A program made the position numbers and the translations under genes. From a phage, in sequence record PZ386962.1: a stretch of DNA of 42,716 nt. The stretch is one strand, 5' to 3'. Positions 3,463 through 42,693 of the stretch are shown one piece after another. A model generated the notes under the pieces. It did not search any database, was not told the origin of the DNA, and was given only the letters and a program-made list of their open reading frames with translations. Numbering within the stretch: position 1 is the stretch's first letter; each line of letters begins with the position of its first letter.

Positions 3463-3998
3463 TGACTAACTTTGAAATCTGTATGCGGTTCACCGGGCTG
3501 GCAGAAGGCGGTTACGCCAACCTGCCCGGCGACACCGGAGGGGAAACGAATCATGGAATTAGTGACGCTCGTGATGGAAAGCTGGATGGTAGAGCTTGCG
3601 GTGTCCCTACTGGGCTTGGCGGCACTATTTGTGTGCCTATCCGCGACCTCACCAAAGCGCAAGCCGAAGCAATCTATCGACGGGACTACTACAGCCCCAT
3701 CCGAGGTGACGAGCTTCACCCTGCGATTGCATGTGCCGTGTTCGACTACGGCGTTAACTCAGGTGTCTCCCGTGCGGCGAAAGCTCTACAGCGGGTATGC
3801 GGCGTTGCACAAGACGGGGTTATTGGCCCTGCTACCGTGGCAGCAGCCAAACGTCTGGAACCTCGCTCCGCAGCAGCAGCCATCTGTAACCTTCGTATTG
3901 CGTTCCTAAAGGCTTCTACAGCCCCAACAATCGTTCGGTATAGGGATGCCTTGGTAGCTCGTGCAAAACGCTGTAGCGCTTACTGTGCGACGCTGTAG
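3462..3998 (+). CDS. endolysin, GH108-like N-terminal domain with peptidoglycan-binding C-terminal domain
   Basis: EGGY motif near N-terminus (FTGLAEGGYANLPGD) as in GH108 family enzymes; DGxxGxxT-type motif (QDGVIGPATV) as in PG_binding_3 domains; no signal peptide, so holin-dependent. Confidence 0.7.
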   Translation: MTNFEICMRFTGLAEGGYANLPGDTGGETNHGISDARDGKLDGRACGVPTGLGGTICVPIRDLTKAQAEAIYRRDYYSPIRGDELHPAIACAVFDYGVNSGVSRAAKALQRVCGVAQDGVIGPATVAAAKRLEPRSAAAAICNLRIAFLKASTAPTIVRYRDALVARAKRCSAYCATL

Positions 3999-4200
3999 GG
4001 GTATCCGAAAGCTGAGGCAATGAACAGGCCGTGGGTGCAATACCCCGGCTTGAAAATTGACTATTTGTACGTGCCCCTCCCTCGACCCAAATGACCGCGC
4101 GTACCCCCATGACGTGTGCGCGGATTAGCCTCGCGACGTGCGCGATAATTGCTCGCGTGCGCTGCGCGGCGCGTCGAAAGGATTGCCTGCGTTCGGTATA

Positions 4201-4608
4201 GCTCGTGCGTGTCGCGTTTCATCGTCTGCCGTGTGGCGTGCTGTGCGCTGTCCTGCTGGCTGTGCTGTGTGCCTGCTGTGTGGGCTATCGGTGGCGGTGT
4301 GGTGCTGTCCTGTGGGGACGCTCTGCGCTGGCTGTGCGGTGCTGTGCGCTGCGCGTGGTCGTGCGGGTATCTGTCTCTTTTCGTCGTGGTGTGTGGTGCT
4401 GGTGTGTAGCGGTGTGCGGCGTGGTGCTGCCGTCCTGCTGTGTGGTGTGCTGGTCTACTGTCTGCGCCTGCCAGCTCTGCGCGTCGTACTCTGCTACCTG
4501 CTGTTACTGTCCTACTGCCTTCACTGTCTGCCGTCTGTCAGTCCTACGGTCTGCCATCCGTCATCCGTTCGGCGCTCGCTTGTTTCGGCTGCGCCGCGCT
4601 CGCTCTGC
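4201..4608. repeat. A-depleted GT/GC-rich compositional island with degenerate short repeats
   Basis: About 400 bp in which the + strand has only ~16 A by hand count; built from degenerate GCTGTG / CTGTGCGCTG / ACTGTCTGCC units; long ORFs in all three + frames are a composition artefact. Confidence 0.7.
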
Positions 4609-4617
4609 GTATCTAGC

Positions 4618-4635
4618 GATACTATATCACTATAG
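4618..4635 (+). promoter_or_regulatory. T7-like phage promoter core candidate (TCACTATAG) near presumed genome left end
   Basis: GATACTATATCACTATAG: last 9 nt identical to T7 class promoter -8 to +1 (TCACTATAG); reverse complement carries the ATGAAAGTGTCTATAG element also found at 25618. Confidence 0.3.
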
Positions 4636-4651
4636 ACACTTTCATAATTAT

Positions 4652-4672
4652 CTAATGATTACAGTAACTTAT
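4652..4672. repeat. 21-bp direct repeat copy 1 (CTAATGATTACAGTAACTTAT)
   Basis: Exact 21-mer repeated at 4731-4751 within an AT-rich stretch. Confidence 0.85.
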
Positions 4673-4730
4673 AACCTATCTGATAACGGTATTCTATCCA
4701 GTGTTAGGATTATCTAATCAAACTTTAATC

Positions 4731-4751
4731 CTAATGATTACAGTAACTTAT
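4731..4751. repeat. 21-bp direct repeat copy 2 (CTAATGATTACAGTAACTTAT)
   Basis: Exact copy of 4652-4672. Confidence 0.85.
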
Positions 4752-4772
4752 CACTTTTCTTGAAAATAATAC

Positions 4773-4801
4773 TTGCAAAGGTATTCGGTATTTGCTGTAA
4801 T
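4773..4801 (+). promoter_or_regulatory. sigma70-type early promoter candidate 1
   Basis: TTGCAA (-35) - 17 bp - TGcTGTAAT (extended -10). Confidence 0.5.
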
Positions 4802-4878
4802 TCATATCGCCGGACAACACAGCGTCAACGTGTTGGACGGTGTAGGACGGTAACACTGCTCTTTAACAATCTGGTGTG

Positions 4879-4907
4879 TTGACAAGGCAAGCTCACTATG
4901 CTGTAAT
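4879..4907 (+). promoter_or_regulatory. sigma70-type early promoter candidate 2
   Basis: TTGACA - 17 bp - TGcTGTAAT (extended -10 TGn). Confidence 0.6.
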
Positions 4908-5015
4908 GCTTCCACGTCAGCCAGCAAGCTAAACAGTCATTGATAAAGACGTTAAAACACACGTAGGCGAACTGGTACGGTTTAATTAACTCTGAAAGGG
5001 CGCTGATTAAAACGG

Positions 5016-5044
5016 TTGACAGGATGAAATGAGTATGCTGTAAT
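5016..5044 (+). promoter_or_regulatory. sigma70-type early promoter candidate 3
   Basis: TTGACA - 17 bp - TGcTGTAAT. Confidence 0.6.
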
Positions 5045-5095
5045 GCACACCAGATTGACAGGGCAGCAAGCCAGTCAGTCAGAAGTAAAAAGTAG

Positions 5096-5124
5096 TTGAC
5101 ACGCTGAATACGATGTGATGTAAT
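5096..5124 (+). promoter_or_regulatory. sigma70-type early promoter candidate 4
   Basis: TTGACA - 17 bp - TGaTGTAAT. Confidence 0.6.
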
Positions 5125-5556
5125 CAGCACCGAGTTGAAAGGTTGCAAAACAACCTGCTCTGAGTGAACGTAAACAGGCCACGTAGTGTCTCGGCCTCAT
5201 GGGTATCCGGCGCAGCTAGGAACTGGTGAGGGCACCGCCGAAAGGCAATAGGGGTAGCGCCCGGTGCGATGGGAACGGAGAAGCGCGATAGACGCAGCGC
5301 AGTATCAGCACAATCCCAAACGTCTTATAAGGCGCGGAGTGAAGCGGGTAGGTAGGCAAGCTGGTAACGGTGAGCCGGACTGCTGGAGGACTCCTGAGAG
5401 TGGATGCAGACAATATCCACGGCGCGAAATGGGCGGGGCGATTTTTCAGGGTAGTGAATCCGACAAGCCAATCAATGCCAACGAGTGCAGACTGTACGGC
5501 GCGTCACAATGGGTTCACTATCCACCTGAAAATAGCCAACAACTGGAGAAATTAAT

Positions 5557-5946
5557 ATGTACCGTATCTATGCAAGCGCATATCGTCAGGGCAACGCTGA
5601 GTCAGTCAATCTGGCGCTTCATTGCAAGGCACTGCGAACGGTGCAGGACATGTTCGGAGTGGTTCCGGTCACACTGACAGGCAAGTTCGACAATGCGTAT
5701 GAGTTAAGCATGGTCTTCCCTGTCGATGGAATCTACGAAATCCGACAGGCTGTTAAGCTGTTTTGTAAAGCCTTCGAACAGGACTGCATCATGGTAGTGA
5801 CCAAAGACGACGATGCAATCTTCATGGACTCACCGTATCCGGGTAAGCCTGCTGGCAAGCTGGTCAGCAAGACTAACGAGGAAATGGAAGCCGGGCAGCA
5901 TACCGCTTGGACTTACGATGGTGAGCAATTTTGGGTAGTGGAGTAA
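5557..5946 (+). CDS. hypothetical early protein
   Basis: 129-aa ORF, GGAGA RBS 6 nt upstream, first well-supported ORF downstream of the promoter cluster. Confidence 0.6.
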   Translation: MYRIYASAYRQGNAESVNLALHCKALRTVQDMFGVVPVTLTGKFDNAYELSMVFPVDGIYEIRQAVKLFCKAFEQDCIMVVTKDDDAIFMDSPYPGKPAGKLVSKTNEEMEAGQHTAWTYDGEQFWVVE

Positions 5947-6120
5947 GGAGCATGACTATGTTCACTGCACTGTGTGTTATTGCGGCGGCGTGTTGGGTTA
6001 TTGACCAGCGCCTGCCTAAGCGAGCCTGATATGTGGGACTTACTGGTAGCGTTATTCTGGTTCGTCTTTGCAGGCTTGTGGATTTACTGGCTGACTCGTC
6101 CCAAATTATGGTGACTGCCT

Positions 6121-6706: not shown

Positions 6707-6781
6707 GCGGGATTGACTCAAGCCAGTGTCAAGGCGCTGGCTTTATGGCAATTCTGCCCCAACCTATTCGGAGTATTACCC

Positions 6782-7483: not shown

Positions 7484-7505
7484 CTGCCTCGTTGCGACGG
7501 GGCAG
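7484..7505 (+). other. intergenic RNA stem-loop (8-bp stem, TTGCGA loop)
   Basis: CTGCCTCG-TTGCGA-CGGGGCAG followed by GGCAATCATGCC box. Confidence 0.5.
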
Positions 7506-7541
7506 TGCGGCAATCATGCCCCAATCTACTGAGGATTTATT

Positions 7542-8089: not shown

Positions 8090-8157
8090 TTTCTGTCAGC
8101 CCATCCATAGCGGTGGGCTGTAGGGCAATCATGCCACAACTAACTGAGGGTTTTACC

Positions 8158-25613: not shown

Positions 25614-25633
25614 TATATGAAAGTGTCTATAGT
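25614..25633 (+). promoter_or_regulatory. candidate phage RNAP promoter upstream of late genes
   Basis: TTATATGAAAGTGTCTATAG: AT-rich upstream part, TATA then G at presumed +1; 22-nt match to reverse complement of 4624-4645; ATGAARGTGTCTA core also at 10799 and 25906. Confidence 0.3.
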
Positions 25634-25699
25634 GATATGTATCACGCTACCGGTAGCCCCGTCAGTGGCGGGGGTTACTGCCACTAAGAGAGGATTGTA

Positions 25700-29416: not shown

Positions 29417-30409
29417 ATGGCTGATAACACCTATACCCCAAATCAGTTCCGTCCACACTGGGGTGGCGCGAACTCTGATAACGACATCCACCTTGAGGTG
29501 TATGACCGTGATGTTCAAACCCAGTTCATCTACAACTCCATCTTCCGTTCCGGTCTGACCAACTTCAAGTCTGTGGCTAACCAGTCCAACACTTGGCGTG
29601 GCGACCGTCTCGGCTCTGTGACTGTTAAGGGTCGTCGCTCTGGCGAGGCGCTGGACAACCAGCCAGTTCGCTCTGAGAAACTGATTGTCACTGTGGATAC
29701 CGTGTCTTACATCCGTATCCCGATTGACTATCAGGACGACTGGACTGCGCCGGACTTCCGCGCTGAGCTGACCCGTAACATGGGTACTGCACAGGCGAAG
29801 GCGTTCGACCAAGCGCACGTCATCCAGCTCCAGAAGTCTGCTGACTTCGTGCCTCCGGCTTCTCTGGCTGGTGCGTTCAACGCAGGTATCAAGGAGCAGG
29901 TCACTCTGACTGGCACCGTGGCATCTGAGGAAGATGATGCGTCTGCGCTGGTACACGGCCACAAGAAAGCTATCGAGGCGTTCATTCGCCGCGATGCTGA
30001 CCTTGGCCGACTGGTTACGCTGATTGACCCGGCGTGGTTCAGCATTCTGCTGGAGCACAAGAAACTGATGAACGTTGAGTTCACTGGTGGTCGTGGTGTC
30101 AACGACTTCGCAATGCGTCGTGTTGCGTATGTCAACGGTATCCGTATCATCGAGAGCAACGCGTTCCCGCAGGCGGCAATCACCGACCACATCCTCGGCC
30201 CTGACTTCAACGTCACCGCCGACGAGATTCAGCGCAAGATGATTATCTTCGACCCGTCTCTGGCTCTGGTCACTGTCGAAGCCCAGCCGCTGTTCAACCG
30301 CGTATGGGATGACGAACGTGAACTGACCAACGTTCTGGATAGCTTCCACATGTACACCGTGGGTCAGCGTCGTCCAGACGTGGTTGCTGTAGTTACCACT
30401 GAGTCCTAA
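29417..30409 (+). CDS. major capsid protein (T7 gp10-like)
   Basis: 330 aa; lies after scaffolding gene; AAGGA RBS; followed by hairpin terminator as for T7 gene 10. Confidence 0.8.
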   Translation: MADNTYTPNQFRPHWGGANSDNDIHLEVYDRDVQTQFIYNSIFRSGLTNFKSVANQSNTWRGDRLGSVTVKGRRSGEALDNQPVRSEKLIVTVDTVSYIRIPIDYQDDWTAPDFRAELTRNMGTAQAKAFDQAHVIQLQKSADFVPPASLAGAFNAGIKEQVTLTGTVASEEDDASALVHGHKKAIEAFIRRDADLGRLVTLIDPAWFSILLEHKKLMNVEFTGGRGVNDFAMRRVAYVNGIRIIESNAFPQAAITDHILGPDFNVTADEIQRKMIIFDPSLALVTVEAQPLFNRVWDDERELTNVLDSFHMYTVGQRRPDVVAVVTTES

Positions 30410-40006: not shown

Positions 40007-42378
40007 TGGCGAACAGCTATAATACTTACGTGGCGAACGGTTCACAGACCGCATTCCTCGTCACGTTCGAGCAGCGCGTGTTCACTGAGATTCAGGTGTA
40101 CCTCAACTCCGAACTCCAGACGAGCGGATACACCTACAACTCTGTGACCAAACAGATTGTCTTTGACACCGCCCCGCCAATCGGGGTGATTGTCCGACTC
40201 CAACGCTACACCTCCGATATTCTGCTTAACAAGTTCGGTCAGGACGCTGCCTTCACGGGCAGCAACCTCGACGAGAACTTCGAGCAGATTCTGTTTAAGG
40301 CTGAGGAAACTCAGGAGGCATGGCTCGCGCCGCTTGACCGCGCAGTCCGTGTCCCGAACTCCGAAGTCTCCATCAACGCATTACCGAACGTCGCTGGCCG
40401 CCGTAACAAGGCATTGGGCTTTGACAACGCTGGCCAGCCGTTCATGATTCCTCTGGTTGATATTCCTGACTCAGCTCTGGCCATTGCGCTGGCGATGAAT
40501 GACGGCGGTAAGTGGATTGGCACCCTTGGCGGTGGTACGTTCCTCGACCGTCAGGACACTGTGTGTCTGTCAGAGTTCACCAACAACACTGGCTATGCGT
40601 CCATCGCTGCCGCTGTGCAGGCATGTTTCGACTATGCCAAGGCAAACGGTAAGGTTGTGGATGCACGCGGCTGGGAAGGCACTGTGGACTCCACGGTGAC
40701 AATGGATGGTATTGAGGTCGTCGGCGGTACGTGGCACGGTAAGGCAGATATTCGACTGATTGACTCAACGTTCCGCAACTTCAAGGCATCCACTGTGCGT
40801 GTGGCATACTGGGGTGGCAAGGTTCGCATTGCTGACTATGAGTTCACCAGTGCGCCGAGCAACTCCAAAGTTACGTCAATCCTGTTCCAAGGCAACATCG
40901 CCGGGGGCAGCTACGTAATCGAGAACGGTATCCACCGTAACGGCAAGTTCGGTATTCTGCAACAGGGTACTGGTGAGGCTATCACCAACGGCATTATCCG
41001 CAACGTCGCTATGATGGACATGATGGGTGATGGCATTGAGATGAACGTAATCAACAAGCACTATGACGGTGGCCTGCTGATTGAGAACATCTACCTTGAG
41101 AATATCGACGGCACCAACGCACCTATTCCACTGTCCAACTGGGGCATCGGTATCGGTATTGCAGGTCAAGGCCCGTTTGGTTGGGATGCTGCTGAGACTC
41201 AGTACGCGAAGAACGTAACCGTGCGTAACGTCCATGCTCCGCGCGGTGTACGTCAGGTTGTCCACTTCGAAGTTACCCGCGACAGCGTGTGCGAGAACGT
41301 GGTCTGTAACCCTGACCTGTCCGTGTCCACTGGTACTGGCCTGTCTGCTGCTGGCGTAATCACGTACGGCTGCAAACGCATGACCATTGATGGCGTGGTT
41401 GGTGAGCCTATCAACACAGGTGCAACCTCCCCTAACGATATTCGTCTCGTTATGCTGGAGTGGGGTGCTAACCAAGCAGGTGCTGGCGGTACGCCGGGTG
41501 CTGCGTGTCCATCTTTTGACATGACCGTGCGCAACGTGCAGACCCGCACCGGGCGCTTCTATGCAGGTGTCGGCTCCGACGACGATAACACCAACACGTA
41601 CCACCTTGAAAACATTCACTGTTACAAGATGACGCTGTTCGGTGTGGCTACTCTGCTGAACATGACCAACGTTACTGGTGTCGTATTCGACGCAGTTGGT
41701 GATGACTCCAGCGGCGGTACTTCATCCAACGGTGTGTACCCGCGTAAGAAGACGTGCCTGAACATGGTGAACGTGAACTTCTACGGGCCGGGTATGACCG
41801 AGGGTGCGCTGTACAGTAAGGCTCGCTACTCTGACATTAGCACGCTGAACTCCAACGTGCGTGCCATCCCTTACTCTAACATCCAAGGTAACGTTGGCGC
41901 TATCCTGTCTCCAGTGAACCGCATCCTGACGCTGCCAAACAACTTGGCAACGCTGACAGGTGCTGAGTTCCCGACTGGTAAAGAGTTCCCGGAAGGTACT
42001 GTCCTGCTGAAAACTGATGGTTCTGGTGGTAACTTCATCGTCACCCAGTTTGGTGCCTACATCCCTAATGATGGCAACAACTTTAAGGTGCGTGCTGCTG
42101 CTGCTGGCCAGACGTATCTGGAGCAGAACCTGACTCCGGCTGGTACTCAGGCATCCACCTCGTGGCTGTACCATAAACCAATCTCTGCTGGCACCCGGTT
42201 GAACATCCCCGGCGCTGGGCCGAGTGGCGGTACACTGACCGTGACGGTGGTGCGTGCTCCTTATCAGGTGGACAACAACATCGGGAACCCGGTACGCATC
42301 GACATCACCCCGGCCATTGTGACGGCTATCCCTGCTGGGACTCAGCTCGCCGCAACTTATCCGGTGGCTTACATCTAA
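40006..42378 (+). CDS. tail fiber / tailspike protein with probable beta-helix enzymatic domain
   Basis: N-terminal segment resembles the T7 gp17-type tail attachment domain in pattern and placement (MANSYNTYVANGSQTAFLVTFEQ...); central region has repeated NVxVRNV-like strands typical of right-handed parallel beta-helix depolymerases. Confidence 0.7.
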   Translation: MANSYNTYVANGSQTAFLVTFEQRVFTEIQVYLNSELQTSGYTYNSVTKQIVFDTAPPIGVIVRLQRYTSDILLNKFGQDAAFTGSNLDENFEQILFKAEETQEAWLAPLDRAVRVPNSEVSINALPNVAGRRNKALGFDNAGQPFMIPLVDIPDSALAIALAMNDGGKWIGTLGGGTFLDRQDTVCLSEFTNNTGYASIAAAVQACFDYAKANGKVVDARGWEGTVDSTVTMDGIEVVGGTWHGKADIRLIDSTFRNFKASTVRVAYWGGKVRIADYEFTSAPSNSKVTSILFQGNIAGGSYVIENGIHRNGKFGILQQGTGEAITNGIIRNVAMMDMMGDGIEMNVINKHYDGGLLIENIYLENIDGTNAPIPLSNWGIGIGIAGQGPFGWDAAETQYAKNVTVRNVHAPRGVRQVVHFEVTRDSVCENVVCNPDLSVSTGTGLSAAGVITYGCKRMTIDGVVGEPINTGATSPNDIRLVMLEWGANQAGAGGTPGAACPSFDMTVRNVQTRTGRFYAGVGSDDDNTNTYHLENIHCYKMTLFGVATLLNMTNVTGVVFDAVGDDSSGGTSSNGVYPRKKTCLNMVNVNFYGPGMTEGALYSKARYSDISTLNSNVRAIPYSNIQGNVGAILSPVNRILTLPNNLATLTGAEFPTGKEFPEGTVLLKTDGSGGNFIVTQFGAYIPNDGNNFKVRAAAAGQTYLEQNLTPAGTQASTSWLYHKPISAGTRLNIPGAGPSGGTLTVTVVRAPYQVDNNIGNPVRIDITPAIVTAIPAGTQLAATYPVAYI

Positions 42379-42387
42379 GGAGAAACC

Positions 42388-42693
42388 ATGGCATCCGTGA
42401 ACAAGCAGCTCGACGGGCTGCACCGGATGCTGGTGGAGTATCTGTCCGACCGCTTGGCTGACGCTCGTAGGAAAGATGAACATGGTAACATCATCGAACC
42501 TATGGCGGCGGCTGAGCTGTCCGTACTTCGCCAGTTCCTGAAAGACAACGGTATTCAGGCTGATAAAGACCACGCAGATGACCTGCTGGCGCTGCAAGAG
42601 CAACTGAATAACGAAAAGACCGAGGCAGGTCGTAAGGATATTATGACCGCTGCCATTAACTCAATCGCAGAAGATAGCGGGATGATGCACTAA
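42388..42693 (+). CDS. terminase small subunit (T7 gp18-like)
   Basis: 101-aa helical protein directly upstream of terL when the window is read circularly; AAGGAGA RBS. Confidence 0.6.
   Translation: MASVNKQLDGLHRMLVEYLSDRLADARRKDEHGNIIEPMAAAELSVLRQFLKDNGIQADKDHADDLLALQEQLNNEKTEAGRKDIMTAAINSIAEDSGMMH

Follow-up and report, generated by a model that had tools for sequence, protein, structure and literature searches.

We analysed an A-poor island at positions 4201–4608 of a phage DNA of 42,716 nt (sequence record PZ386962.1; this whole stretch is called the window). The phage belongs to Bonnellvirus (Autographiviridae, phiKMV-like), and phage altidsur is 94% identical to it here. The island lies between the last late gene, which encodes a GH108 endolysin and has its stop at 3998, and the early promoters, which begin at 4773 and are followed by the first early gene, a SAM lyase gene (5557–5946). 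It is a composite that consists of a predicted direct terminal repeat (DTR) collapsed to one copy, a pause-type box, a hypervariable filler and a CT-rich segment fused to a promoter-like element.

Position 1 of the window is the ATG of the T7-type large terminase gene (TerL, 1–1737), the small terminase gene (TerS) is at 42388–42693 and the gene for a single-subunit RNA polymerase is in mid-genome (23156–25588). No long direct repeat was found within the window, and the predicted DTR is present in one copy. Because of this and because of the start at the terL ATG, the window is a circularised assembly opened at terL in which a terminal repeat, if any, has been collapsed to a single copy. Such collapse is common in circular assemblies of phages of this kind (PMC10438801). 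The majority of Bonnellvirus records in GenBank are permuted and carry no terminal repeat. The records of usur, glasur and BHUENT7 end at unrelated positions, which are therefore arbitrary linearisation points. A look-up of the exact endolysin protein, aimed at contigs ending at the termini, returned no record.

The 408 nt at 4201–4608 contain 16 A, 145 G, 130 T and 117 C. Across the whole sequence, windows of this size hold on average 93.1 A (standard deviation 11.5), so that the island has a z-score of –6.7 and is the most extreme compositional window of the genome; the next-lowest window without overlap with the island has 71 A. An earlier sequence-only reading had counted about 16 A in roughly 400 nt by hand, against an ordinary composition elsewhere, and the sliding-window composition agrees with it on both points. 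The AT skew falls to –0.886 at 4201–4400, where the GC skew is +0.26. The top-scoring A-poor segment is slightly larger (4149–4610, 22 A in 462 nt). The same reading had placed the few A residues mostly in TAC and TAG, which holds for about half of them: the counts are TAC (6), TAG (1), CAT (3), TAT (2), CAG (2), CAC (1) and GAC (1).

The description of the island as degenerate repeat units stands in part. Tandem Repeats Finder reported two short arrays, one of period 19 with 2 copies (4240–4278) and one of period 10 with 3.2 copies (4320–4352), and the 14-mer GCGGTGTGGTGCTG occurs four times. By contrast, a search for a tandem repeat or microsatellite array across the region gave no regular period, and autocorrelation was not above a first-order Markov model. 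At the level of trinucleotides, CTG, TGC, GTG and GCT reach 2–2.5 times the composition expectation, and GGG (4 observed, 22 expected), CCC, TTT and GTT are avoided.

Several candidate causes and origins of this composition were rejected. Restriction avoidance does not fit, as palindrome cores made of G and C only (GCG, CGC) are enriched rather than avoided, and an orientation bias of the EcoP15I type is not absolute genome-wide (CTGCTG 86, CAGCAG 49). Internal repeats show no consistent offset, as opposed to what an old duplicate of the DTR in the flank beyond it would leave. A Chi cluster acting as a RecBCD attenuator was also dropped: the island has one 7/8 match to Chi (GCTGGTGG) with 1.5 expected, and Lidtsur has none. 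As a separate observation, the window as a whole carries eight Chi sites on the + strand (1102, 2370, 15482, 29040, 30980, 31824, 35193 and 42429) and none on the – strand, where ~2.5 are expected on both strands together and 8 were reached in 2 of 100 shuffles. All eight have the orientation in which they would act on RecBCD that enters from the right genome end; CTG-GTG codon usage may account for part of the excess.

Stop-free open reading frames (ORFs) cover the island in all three + frames, as had been noticed before, at 4138–4635 (165 codons), 4149–4409 and 4205–4717 (170 codons). They are long because every stop codon contains A and A is nearly absent. Their dismissal as non-coding holds up. 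Seven of eight close relatives have 3–11 indels each, of lengths that are not a multiple of 3, relative to the window within 4138–4717, and a PHROG search of four ORFs matched no family. It is hardly credible that a Cys/Leu/Val-rich ORF at 4138–4635 or 4205–4717 encodes a real small membrane or Cys-rich protein. The length of the two ORFs and the proteins annotated here in several GenBank records speak for such a protein, but its frame would be broken in most close relatives, its start would be GTG or TTG, and a stretch so short of A lacks stop codons in any case. The annotations themselves (forsur_28, Kc261 QQM15444, HHU8 XMR00743, Lidtsur QBZ71559, ROV85 gp21-22 and glasur_55) disagree in frame, in extent and even in strand, with glasur_55 on the opposite one. 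We flag these 'hypothetical proteins' over the island as almost certainly artefacts of stop-free sequence.

The left part of the island aligns to an annotated terminal repeat. In J8-65 (KM247287), the type species of Bonnellvirus, a repeat_region is recorded at 1–259 and 40723–40981 and starts with TCGACCCGAAGG. The start and end of this 259-bp DTR align to 4082 and ~4357 of the window (blastn, MAFFT). From this homology we predict a + strand DTR of ~276–286 bp from 4082 to an approximate right boundary at 4357–4367; 4082–4357 has 8.3% A, 27.9% C, 37.7% G and 26.1% T. The predicted left physical end is T4082 (CCTCCC^TCGACCC), where the window reads CCTCCC and then TCGACCCAAATG. The CCTCCC just before the predicted cut site is kept in Bonnellvirus and in LIMEzero. 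The predicted end is backed independently by a left-end motif that is shared across eight Autographiviridae records. This motif, CCCC(C)[AG]T, occurs 23–29 nt from the left end in the records of T7, T3, SP6, K1-5, KP34, phiKMV, LKA1 and J8-65, seven of which begin with TC; the window has CCCCCATG at 4105–4112 (+ strand), 23 nt from its predicted end, and begins with TCGACCC at 4082. The right end of LIMEzero was of no use as an independent DTR boundary, because its record stops within a gene and lacks a repeat. The sequence-only reading had suggested that the island could be part of the terminal repeat or packaging region, at the place of the concatemer junction. Its main points (non-coding sequence, terminal repeat region, upstream of a phiOL-like promoter) largely hold but are incomplete, since only the left ~40% of 4201–4608 falls inside the repeat. 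The remainder is a unique flank with conserved parts of its own.

At the right edge of the predicted DTR, or ~10 nt past it, lies an invariant + strand box, GGGTATCTGTCTCTTTTCG (4364–4382), that consists of TATCTGT(C) and a T-rich run and reads TATCTGTCTCTTTT from 4368. The pattern GG(G/C)TATCT(G/A)TCT(C/T)TTT is found in 12 of 12 Bonnellvirus sequences, inside the most indel-rich part of the alignment. In the window, TATCTGTC agrees with the class II pause sequence TATCTGTT at 7 of 8 positions and is followed by TCTTTT. Pausing of T7 RNA polymerase at TATCTGTT is documented (PMC9157156), and the role of the class II pause at the T7 concatemer junction in starting packaging has been summarised (PMC3276506). 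The end of the DTR abuts ATCTGTT with an offset of 0–2 nt in T7 (160), T3 (231), SP6 (174) and K1-5 (234), and in J8-65 the box begins 12 nt after the annotated DTR end. This likeness in sequence and position suggests that pausing may also occur at the Bonnellvirus box. Upstream of the DTR, the 83-nt spacer from the endolysin stop to the predicted left end (3999–4081) forms a long hairpin (z = –2.0); no U-run follows it, and folding of 3990–4090 likewise gave a hairpin without a U-run. A scan of 3800–5700 for consensus promoters and terminators reported no terminator-like site. Given these results, read-through of the late operon into the repeat is plausible.

Beyond the box, the flank has two parts. 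The first is a GT-rich filler of ~70 nt (4383–4450, + strand), which is hypervariable and prone to indels (A 1.5, C 17.6, G 48.5 and T 32.4%). The second is a CT-rich, A-poor segment of ~160 nt (4451–4612, + strand), which is conserved among the phages and forms one module with the promoter-like element that follows it. This segment (4451–4610: A 6.9, C 36.9, G 25.0 and T 31.2%) holds (T/C)AC-TG(T/C)C units and two GCGCTCGCT repeats. Over the whole island 24% of alignment columns are gapped, as compared to 5.5% in the adjacent promoter region. Within this variable sequence, 13 of the 22 A residues of 4149–4610 are shared by 9 or more of the 12 sequences. The conserved A residues sit in the blocks GGTATAGCTCG, GGACGC..CTGCGCTGG, the TATCT box and CCAGCTC..CGCGTC, which are kept in the divergent J8-65/Lidtsur clade.

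The promoter-like element, GCGATACTATATCACTATAGACACTTTCATA (4613–4646, + strand), is of the T7 type and an analogue of phiOL. It has an exact TCACTATAG core and is conserved across the genus and in LIMEzero. A core CACTATAG with a G start is present, and by analogy with T7 its +1 would be G4635. The T7 consensus matches GATACTATATCACTATAGACAC (4616–4637) at ~14 of 20 positions when aligned by eye with an RZ4-type spacing variant. The window has two copies of the element only. The second is a perfect 23-nt inverted twin of 4624–4646 at 25616–25638, on the – strand in the intergenic space just after the RNA polymerase gene, so that within the window the element does not recur in sense orientation upstream of genes transcribed by the phage polymerase. 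In J8-65 and Lidtsur both promoter-type sites read CAGTTACTTTCATT. The pair thus co-varies, which indicates recognition by one factor. The inverted twin is directed back into the RNA polymerase gene and could give rise to antisense transcripts or prime replication leftwards; 35 nt from it, the same strand carries a second, partial copy (GATACATATCACTATTTATCA).

On the 3' side of the promoter-like element is an AT-rich region (4647–4770, + strand, ~30% GC) with an origin-like layout. It contains two 30-nt direct repeats, CTAATGATTACAGTAACTTATMAC (4652–4681 and 4731–4760), and ATTATCTAAT is also found twice in it. Four sigma-70-type early promoters follow on the + strand at 4773, 4879, 5016 and 5096 (4773–5124), with TTGACA or TTGCAA, a spacer of 17 nt and TGTAAT. 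The placement of the island upstream of a phi-OL-like core and the early host promoters, which had been read from the sequence before, is therefore correct. The scan of 3800–5700 returned no promoters and missed the early TTGACA-N17-TGTAAT ones, because it accepts only –10 hexamers that have A in second position.

As to how far this arrangement extends, the island was present in all 12 Bonnellvirus relatives examined (441–568 bp, 4.8–8.5% A) and by sequence was confined to this genus (blastn). Low A content at the left end has a wider distribution. A-poor stretches were found in phiKMV (21–813, 7.4% A, DTR 414 bp), LKA1 (16–459, 6.1% A, DTR 298 bp), KP34 (58–286, 10% A, DTR 216 bp), LIMEzero (121–612, 10% A, DTR not annotated), SP6 (1–254, 13% A, DTR 174 bp) and T7 (71–167, 9.3% A, DTR 160 bp). 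The A-poor terminus is a lineage trait of phiKMV-like genome ends and is not peculiar to this phage. A literature search for A-poor or GT-rich terminal repeats found no description.

We consider it probable (about 0.62) that the A-poor island is the non-coding physical terminus of the Bonnellvirus genome, made up of the DTR, the box at its edge, the filler and the CT-rich segment with its promoter. By analogy with T7 and T3, late transcription in replicating concatemers would leave the endolysin gene, where the consensus scan found no intrinsic terminator, cross the repeat and pause or terminate at the box. The pause would then mark the site at which terminase makes the right genome end, and the repeat would be duplicated. 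If correct, this locates the termini of this genome and of most Bonnellvirus genomes recorded in GenBank, and a pause box at the repeat edge, as known from T7, would then also be present in a distant phiKMV-like genus with a different polymerase. Most of the remaining A residues are in a few conserved motif blocks; outside these, the sequence would be unconstrained filler, in which short A-free motifs grow and shrink by slippage and drift with a + strand bias against A.

Data from the rest of the genome and from relatives point in the direction of such a bias. At 4-fold degenerate sites of all + strand genes, A makes up 14.1% and T 28.4%. Late-gene sites (A 12.5, C 29.2, G 27.0 and T 31.3%) resemble the right segment of the island and are T/C-rich, early genes are G-rich (36.6% G), and in the capsid gene A falls to 7.4%. 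In nine close relatives, changes to or from A occur about half as often as expected from the number of available sites (CT 30, GT 22, CG 16, AG 9, AC 4 and AT 3), although low-complexity alignment may inflate the classes without A.

There are several points that weigh against this interpretation. The boundaries of the repeat in the window are predicted by homology to J8-65, and the J8-65 paper is silent on how its ends were mapped. The box of the J8-65 clade (TATCTATC) is only a 6/8 match to the pause sequence, the DTR ends of phiKMV, LKA1 and KP34 have no ATCTGT and only T-rich boxes like TGCCTCTTTT (TGCCTCTTTTGCCC etc.), and the Bonnellvirus polymerase is distant from that of T7. With 26% A, the T3 repeat shows that a terminal repeat can function without being depleted of A. 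Nor is A scarce in the other non-coding stretches of this genome, so that it is not obvious how drift alone would bring the island down to 4–5% A. In addition, C is not depleted, contrary to what simple deamination of an exposed strand predicts. In our preferred version of the filler interpretation, the drift is probably joined by some active exclusion of A; a selected property is the other possibility. A further point comes from E. coli islands that share the right part of the A-poor island and lack the phage DTR, as described below.

A distant blastn search with 4082–4650 as the query found window ~4428/4451–4650 in 52 of 5,426 complete E. coli genomes (~1%), with one copy each and 81–90% identity over ~200 bp. 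The shared module extends over ~4451–4680 (~230 bp), is non-coding and is unannotated in E. coli; it thus includes the first ~30 nt of the AT-rich region. In the three genomes examined, the module lies inside an island next to a tRNA-Leu gene (leuX). The island of strain EC09 (NZ_CM169492, locus L025, 10912–25594; islands are also in L026 and L027) has a 58-nt repeat of the tRNA 3' end at both bounds, 14,625 bp apart, and is homologous to 4451–4680 and 29417–30409 of the window. The order in the islands is variable cargo genes, a serine recombinase, the shared module, a DEAD/DEAH helicase, ~8 small ORFs, a T7-type major capsid protein, an HNH endonuclease, endonuclease VII, variable YafO/AbiTii genes and an integrase. 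The capsid protein belongs to phrog_267 (E = 6e-70) and is 55% identical to that of the window. Its best matches among 50,697 phage records are Bonnellvirus capsids (54–56% amino acid identity), followed by LIMEzero (50%).

Besides the capsid gene, the module is the only DNA common to island and phage. The EC09 module is ~99% identical to 4507–4655 of the window, and the capsid genes are 66–77% identical in DNA. Island variants track the phage clades, with EC09 close to the window and altidsur and WP8-S17 close to HHU8 and usur, each at 94% over the proximal 180 nt. In three of three islands the CACTATAG element points into a co-directional operon of 8 kb from the helicase to the endonuclease, and this sense orientation supports a rightward promoter. 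A box-like ATCTTTCTTTTTCG precedes the homology by ~30 nt in the islands, which also contain another A-poor stretch, but the phage DTR was not found in them, and the shared module therefore does not prove a role in packaging. No portal, terminase, scaffold or polymerase gene was annotated or detected in the islands. The J8-65-type terminus had no match in the E. coli genomes, and a search of a plasmid collection gave a single match, which was a mis-filed chromosome.

The CT-rich segment with its promoter is the only non-coding stretch that the phage has in common with these capsid-encoding islands, in which no terminase or polymerase gene was annotated or detected; from this we infer that it is a separate cis-acting module recognised by phage machinery. 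This module could combine a promoter with packaging recognition or with a replication origin, or it could serve transcriptional induction only. We favour the first two, because ~160 nt upstream of a 23-nt promoter have been retained. The right part of the island is not a mere spacer: together with the promoter it behaves as a discrete unit that is retained and swapped by the phage and by elements which have to rely on phage functions. The islands look like parasites of this phage and are candidate satellites of virulent Bonnellvirus phages. More tentatively, ~4451–4680 may be the handle of a helper–satellite system in which leuX islands with a capsid gene of their own are switched on by the phage RNA polymerase and replicated or packaged by the phage; we regard this as possible but would not bet on it. 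If it is true, the A-less composition with T in excess of A would contribute to the signal that the terminase or replication apparatus recognises at the genome ends of phiKMV-like phages. Should the islands prove to be satellites of a virulent T7-like phage, the module would directly indicate the signal for transcription, replication or the choice of DNA to be packaged.

There are other, less likely explanations of the island. One is that it is a replication or priming zone, in which the promoter-like element and the AT-rich region form a phiOL-type origin and the T-less minus strand is a 'primase desert' of ~500 nt. The 3' end of the minus strand would then stay single-stranded across the repeat and could anneal into concatemers. 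The one-sided trinucleotides of 4082–4610 (CTG 39 on the + and 2 on the – strand, GTC 19 and 5) fit this, as does the resemblance of a promoter followed by an AT-rich repeat region to the T7 origin. The E. coli islands have retained the module next to the promoter together with the beginning of the AT-rich region, and no DNA polymerase gene was annotated or detected in them. However, the density of GTC, to which the sequence-only reading had drawn attention, is high only as compared to the genome (19 against 6.6 per 529 nt) and not to the island's own composition, which predicts 16. By inspection, the left end of T7 has several GAC in its first 160 nt, so the equivalent strand keeps GTC sites, the T3 repeat is not poor in A, and the asymmetry would leave the copy at the right end fully primable. 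We consider a priming zone unlikely. A similarly low probability goes to a functionless low-complexity spacer that arose by slippage and strand-asymmetric mutation bias and has no sequence-specific role beyond the repeat ends. Such a by-product would be as hypervariable and rich in indels as the island is, would vary in length across the genus (441–568 bp), and would show neither periodicity beyond a first-order Markov model nor a folding signal; the bias against A at 4-fold sites genome-wide is in the same direction. It would not be expected to keep GGTATAGCTCG, GGACGC..CTGCGCTGG, the TATCT box and CCAGCTC..CGCGTC unchanged between clades whose identity is otherwise <75%. Nor does it account for the right 160 nt, which are 94–99% identical in E. 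coli islands whose capsid gene DNA is only 66–77% identical.

We think it quite improbable, and more so than either of these, that the island is a strand-asymmetric structure that exposes the repeat for nicking and duplication, be it Z-DNA or strand opening under the negative supercoiling behind a polymerase paused at the box, or an R-loop stabilised by a G-rich non-template strand. Its best argument is an alternating purine/pyrimidine zone of the (G-Y)n type at 4101–4500, where the alternating fraction (0.64–0.72) is the highest of the genome and >3 standard deviations above the mean (0.537, standard deviation 0.05). J8-65 has a perfect 20-nt alternating run, TGTGCGCGTGCGCGTGCATG, at 35–54, and the positive GC skew of 4201–4400 would suit an R-loop. 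On the other hand, the longest perfect run in the window's island is 11 nt, with longer ones elsewhere in genes; phiKMV, LKA1 and T7 are without such tracts; the avoidance of GGG argues against R-loops driven by G clusters; and C exceeds G in the right half. The suggestion of a structural element, also made earlier from the letters, found no support in folding: as single-strand DNA, neither strand of 4082–4610 folds better than shuffled sequences (z = –0.1 and +1.1), and a search of 3900–6000 with 4,227 Rfam covariance models gave no match at E ≤ 1. The genome terminus with its edge box and separate module remains our preferred interpretation.

A few observations concern the early region. The four early promoters are strong and have an unusual extended –10 context, mostly GCTGTAATGC. 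The 430-nt leader between them and the SAM lyase gene (5130–5560) folds as RNA at –155.8 kcal/mol (z = –3.2, reached in 0 of 100 shuffles), belongs to no Rfam family and is rich in indels among relatives. Further downstream, a 39-nt element, GGGCAGTGCGGCAATCATGCCCCAATCTACTGAGGATTT, occurs three times (6738–6776, 7500–7538 and 8115–8153) with 64–79% identity. In each copy, a hairpin-like GGGCA...TGCCC precedes a Shine-Dalgarno-like GAGG, and these may be processing or regulatory sites.

As a comparison, the concatemer junction of T7 and T3 has the same order as the Bonnellvirus terminus: the last late gene, the repeat, a pause-type box at its right edge, a low-complexity and strand-skewed flank, a phage promoter, an AT-rich stretch, a cluster of strong host promoters and an anti-restriction gene as the first gene. 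T7 itself is A-poor at 71–167 (9.3%) and strongly skewed at 156–483 (11% G). There are also differences. The Bonnellvirus repeat is longer (~276–286 bp rather than 160 or 231 bp), and the box of the window is TATCTGTC with a T-run and not ATCTGTT. Its flank is an A-less GT/CT sequence without periodic heptamers, whereas that of T7 is a G-poor CCTAAAG array. The window has no phiOR-like promoter copy to the left of the repeat, its other copy being inverted and behind the polymerase gene, and that gene is in mid-genome, as in phiKMV, unlike in T7.

The closest counterpart is J8-65, which has a homologous left end, the same internal blocks, box and architecture, and an A-poor stretch at 14–515 (7.6% A). 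It is ~73% identical to the window over the first ~200 nt, beyond which the blastn alignment does not extend, and its promoter-like element is of another type, ACAGTTACTTTCATT. In phiKMV, LKA1, KP34 and LIMEzero, the A-poor + strand also spans the DTR and beyond; in the first three the DTR is directly followed by a T-rich pyrimidine box, and phiKMV is enriched in CTG. By contrast, these four phages have no sequence homology to the window here, ATCTGT is absent at their boundary, and an excess of G over C is seen only in the enterobacterial phages.

The E. coli islands resemble satellites that have captured a cis-acting signal of their helper phage (cos or pac sites in SaPI/PICI; P4/P2; PLE/ICP1) in that they are bounded by att sites, encode an integrase and carry a non-coding phage segment of ~230 bp. 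The island is 14.6 kb, which is about one-third of the phage genome as in classical satellites, and it has a capsid homologue from the same phage clade. Full-text literature searches for satellites of Autographiviridae or for such islands found no description. Unlike in these systems, the helper would be a virulent phage of the T7 type that has an RNA polymerase of its own. The shared segment includes a promoter of the phage-polymerase type that faces the island operon, and the island has a capsid gene but no recognisable portal, terminase or scaffold. The terminus is of the known T7 type, with a lineage-wide extreme of composition and an unforeseen link to candidate satellites.

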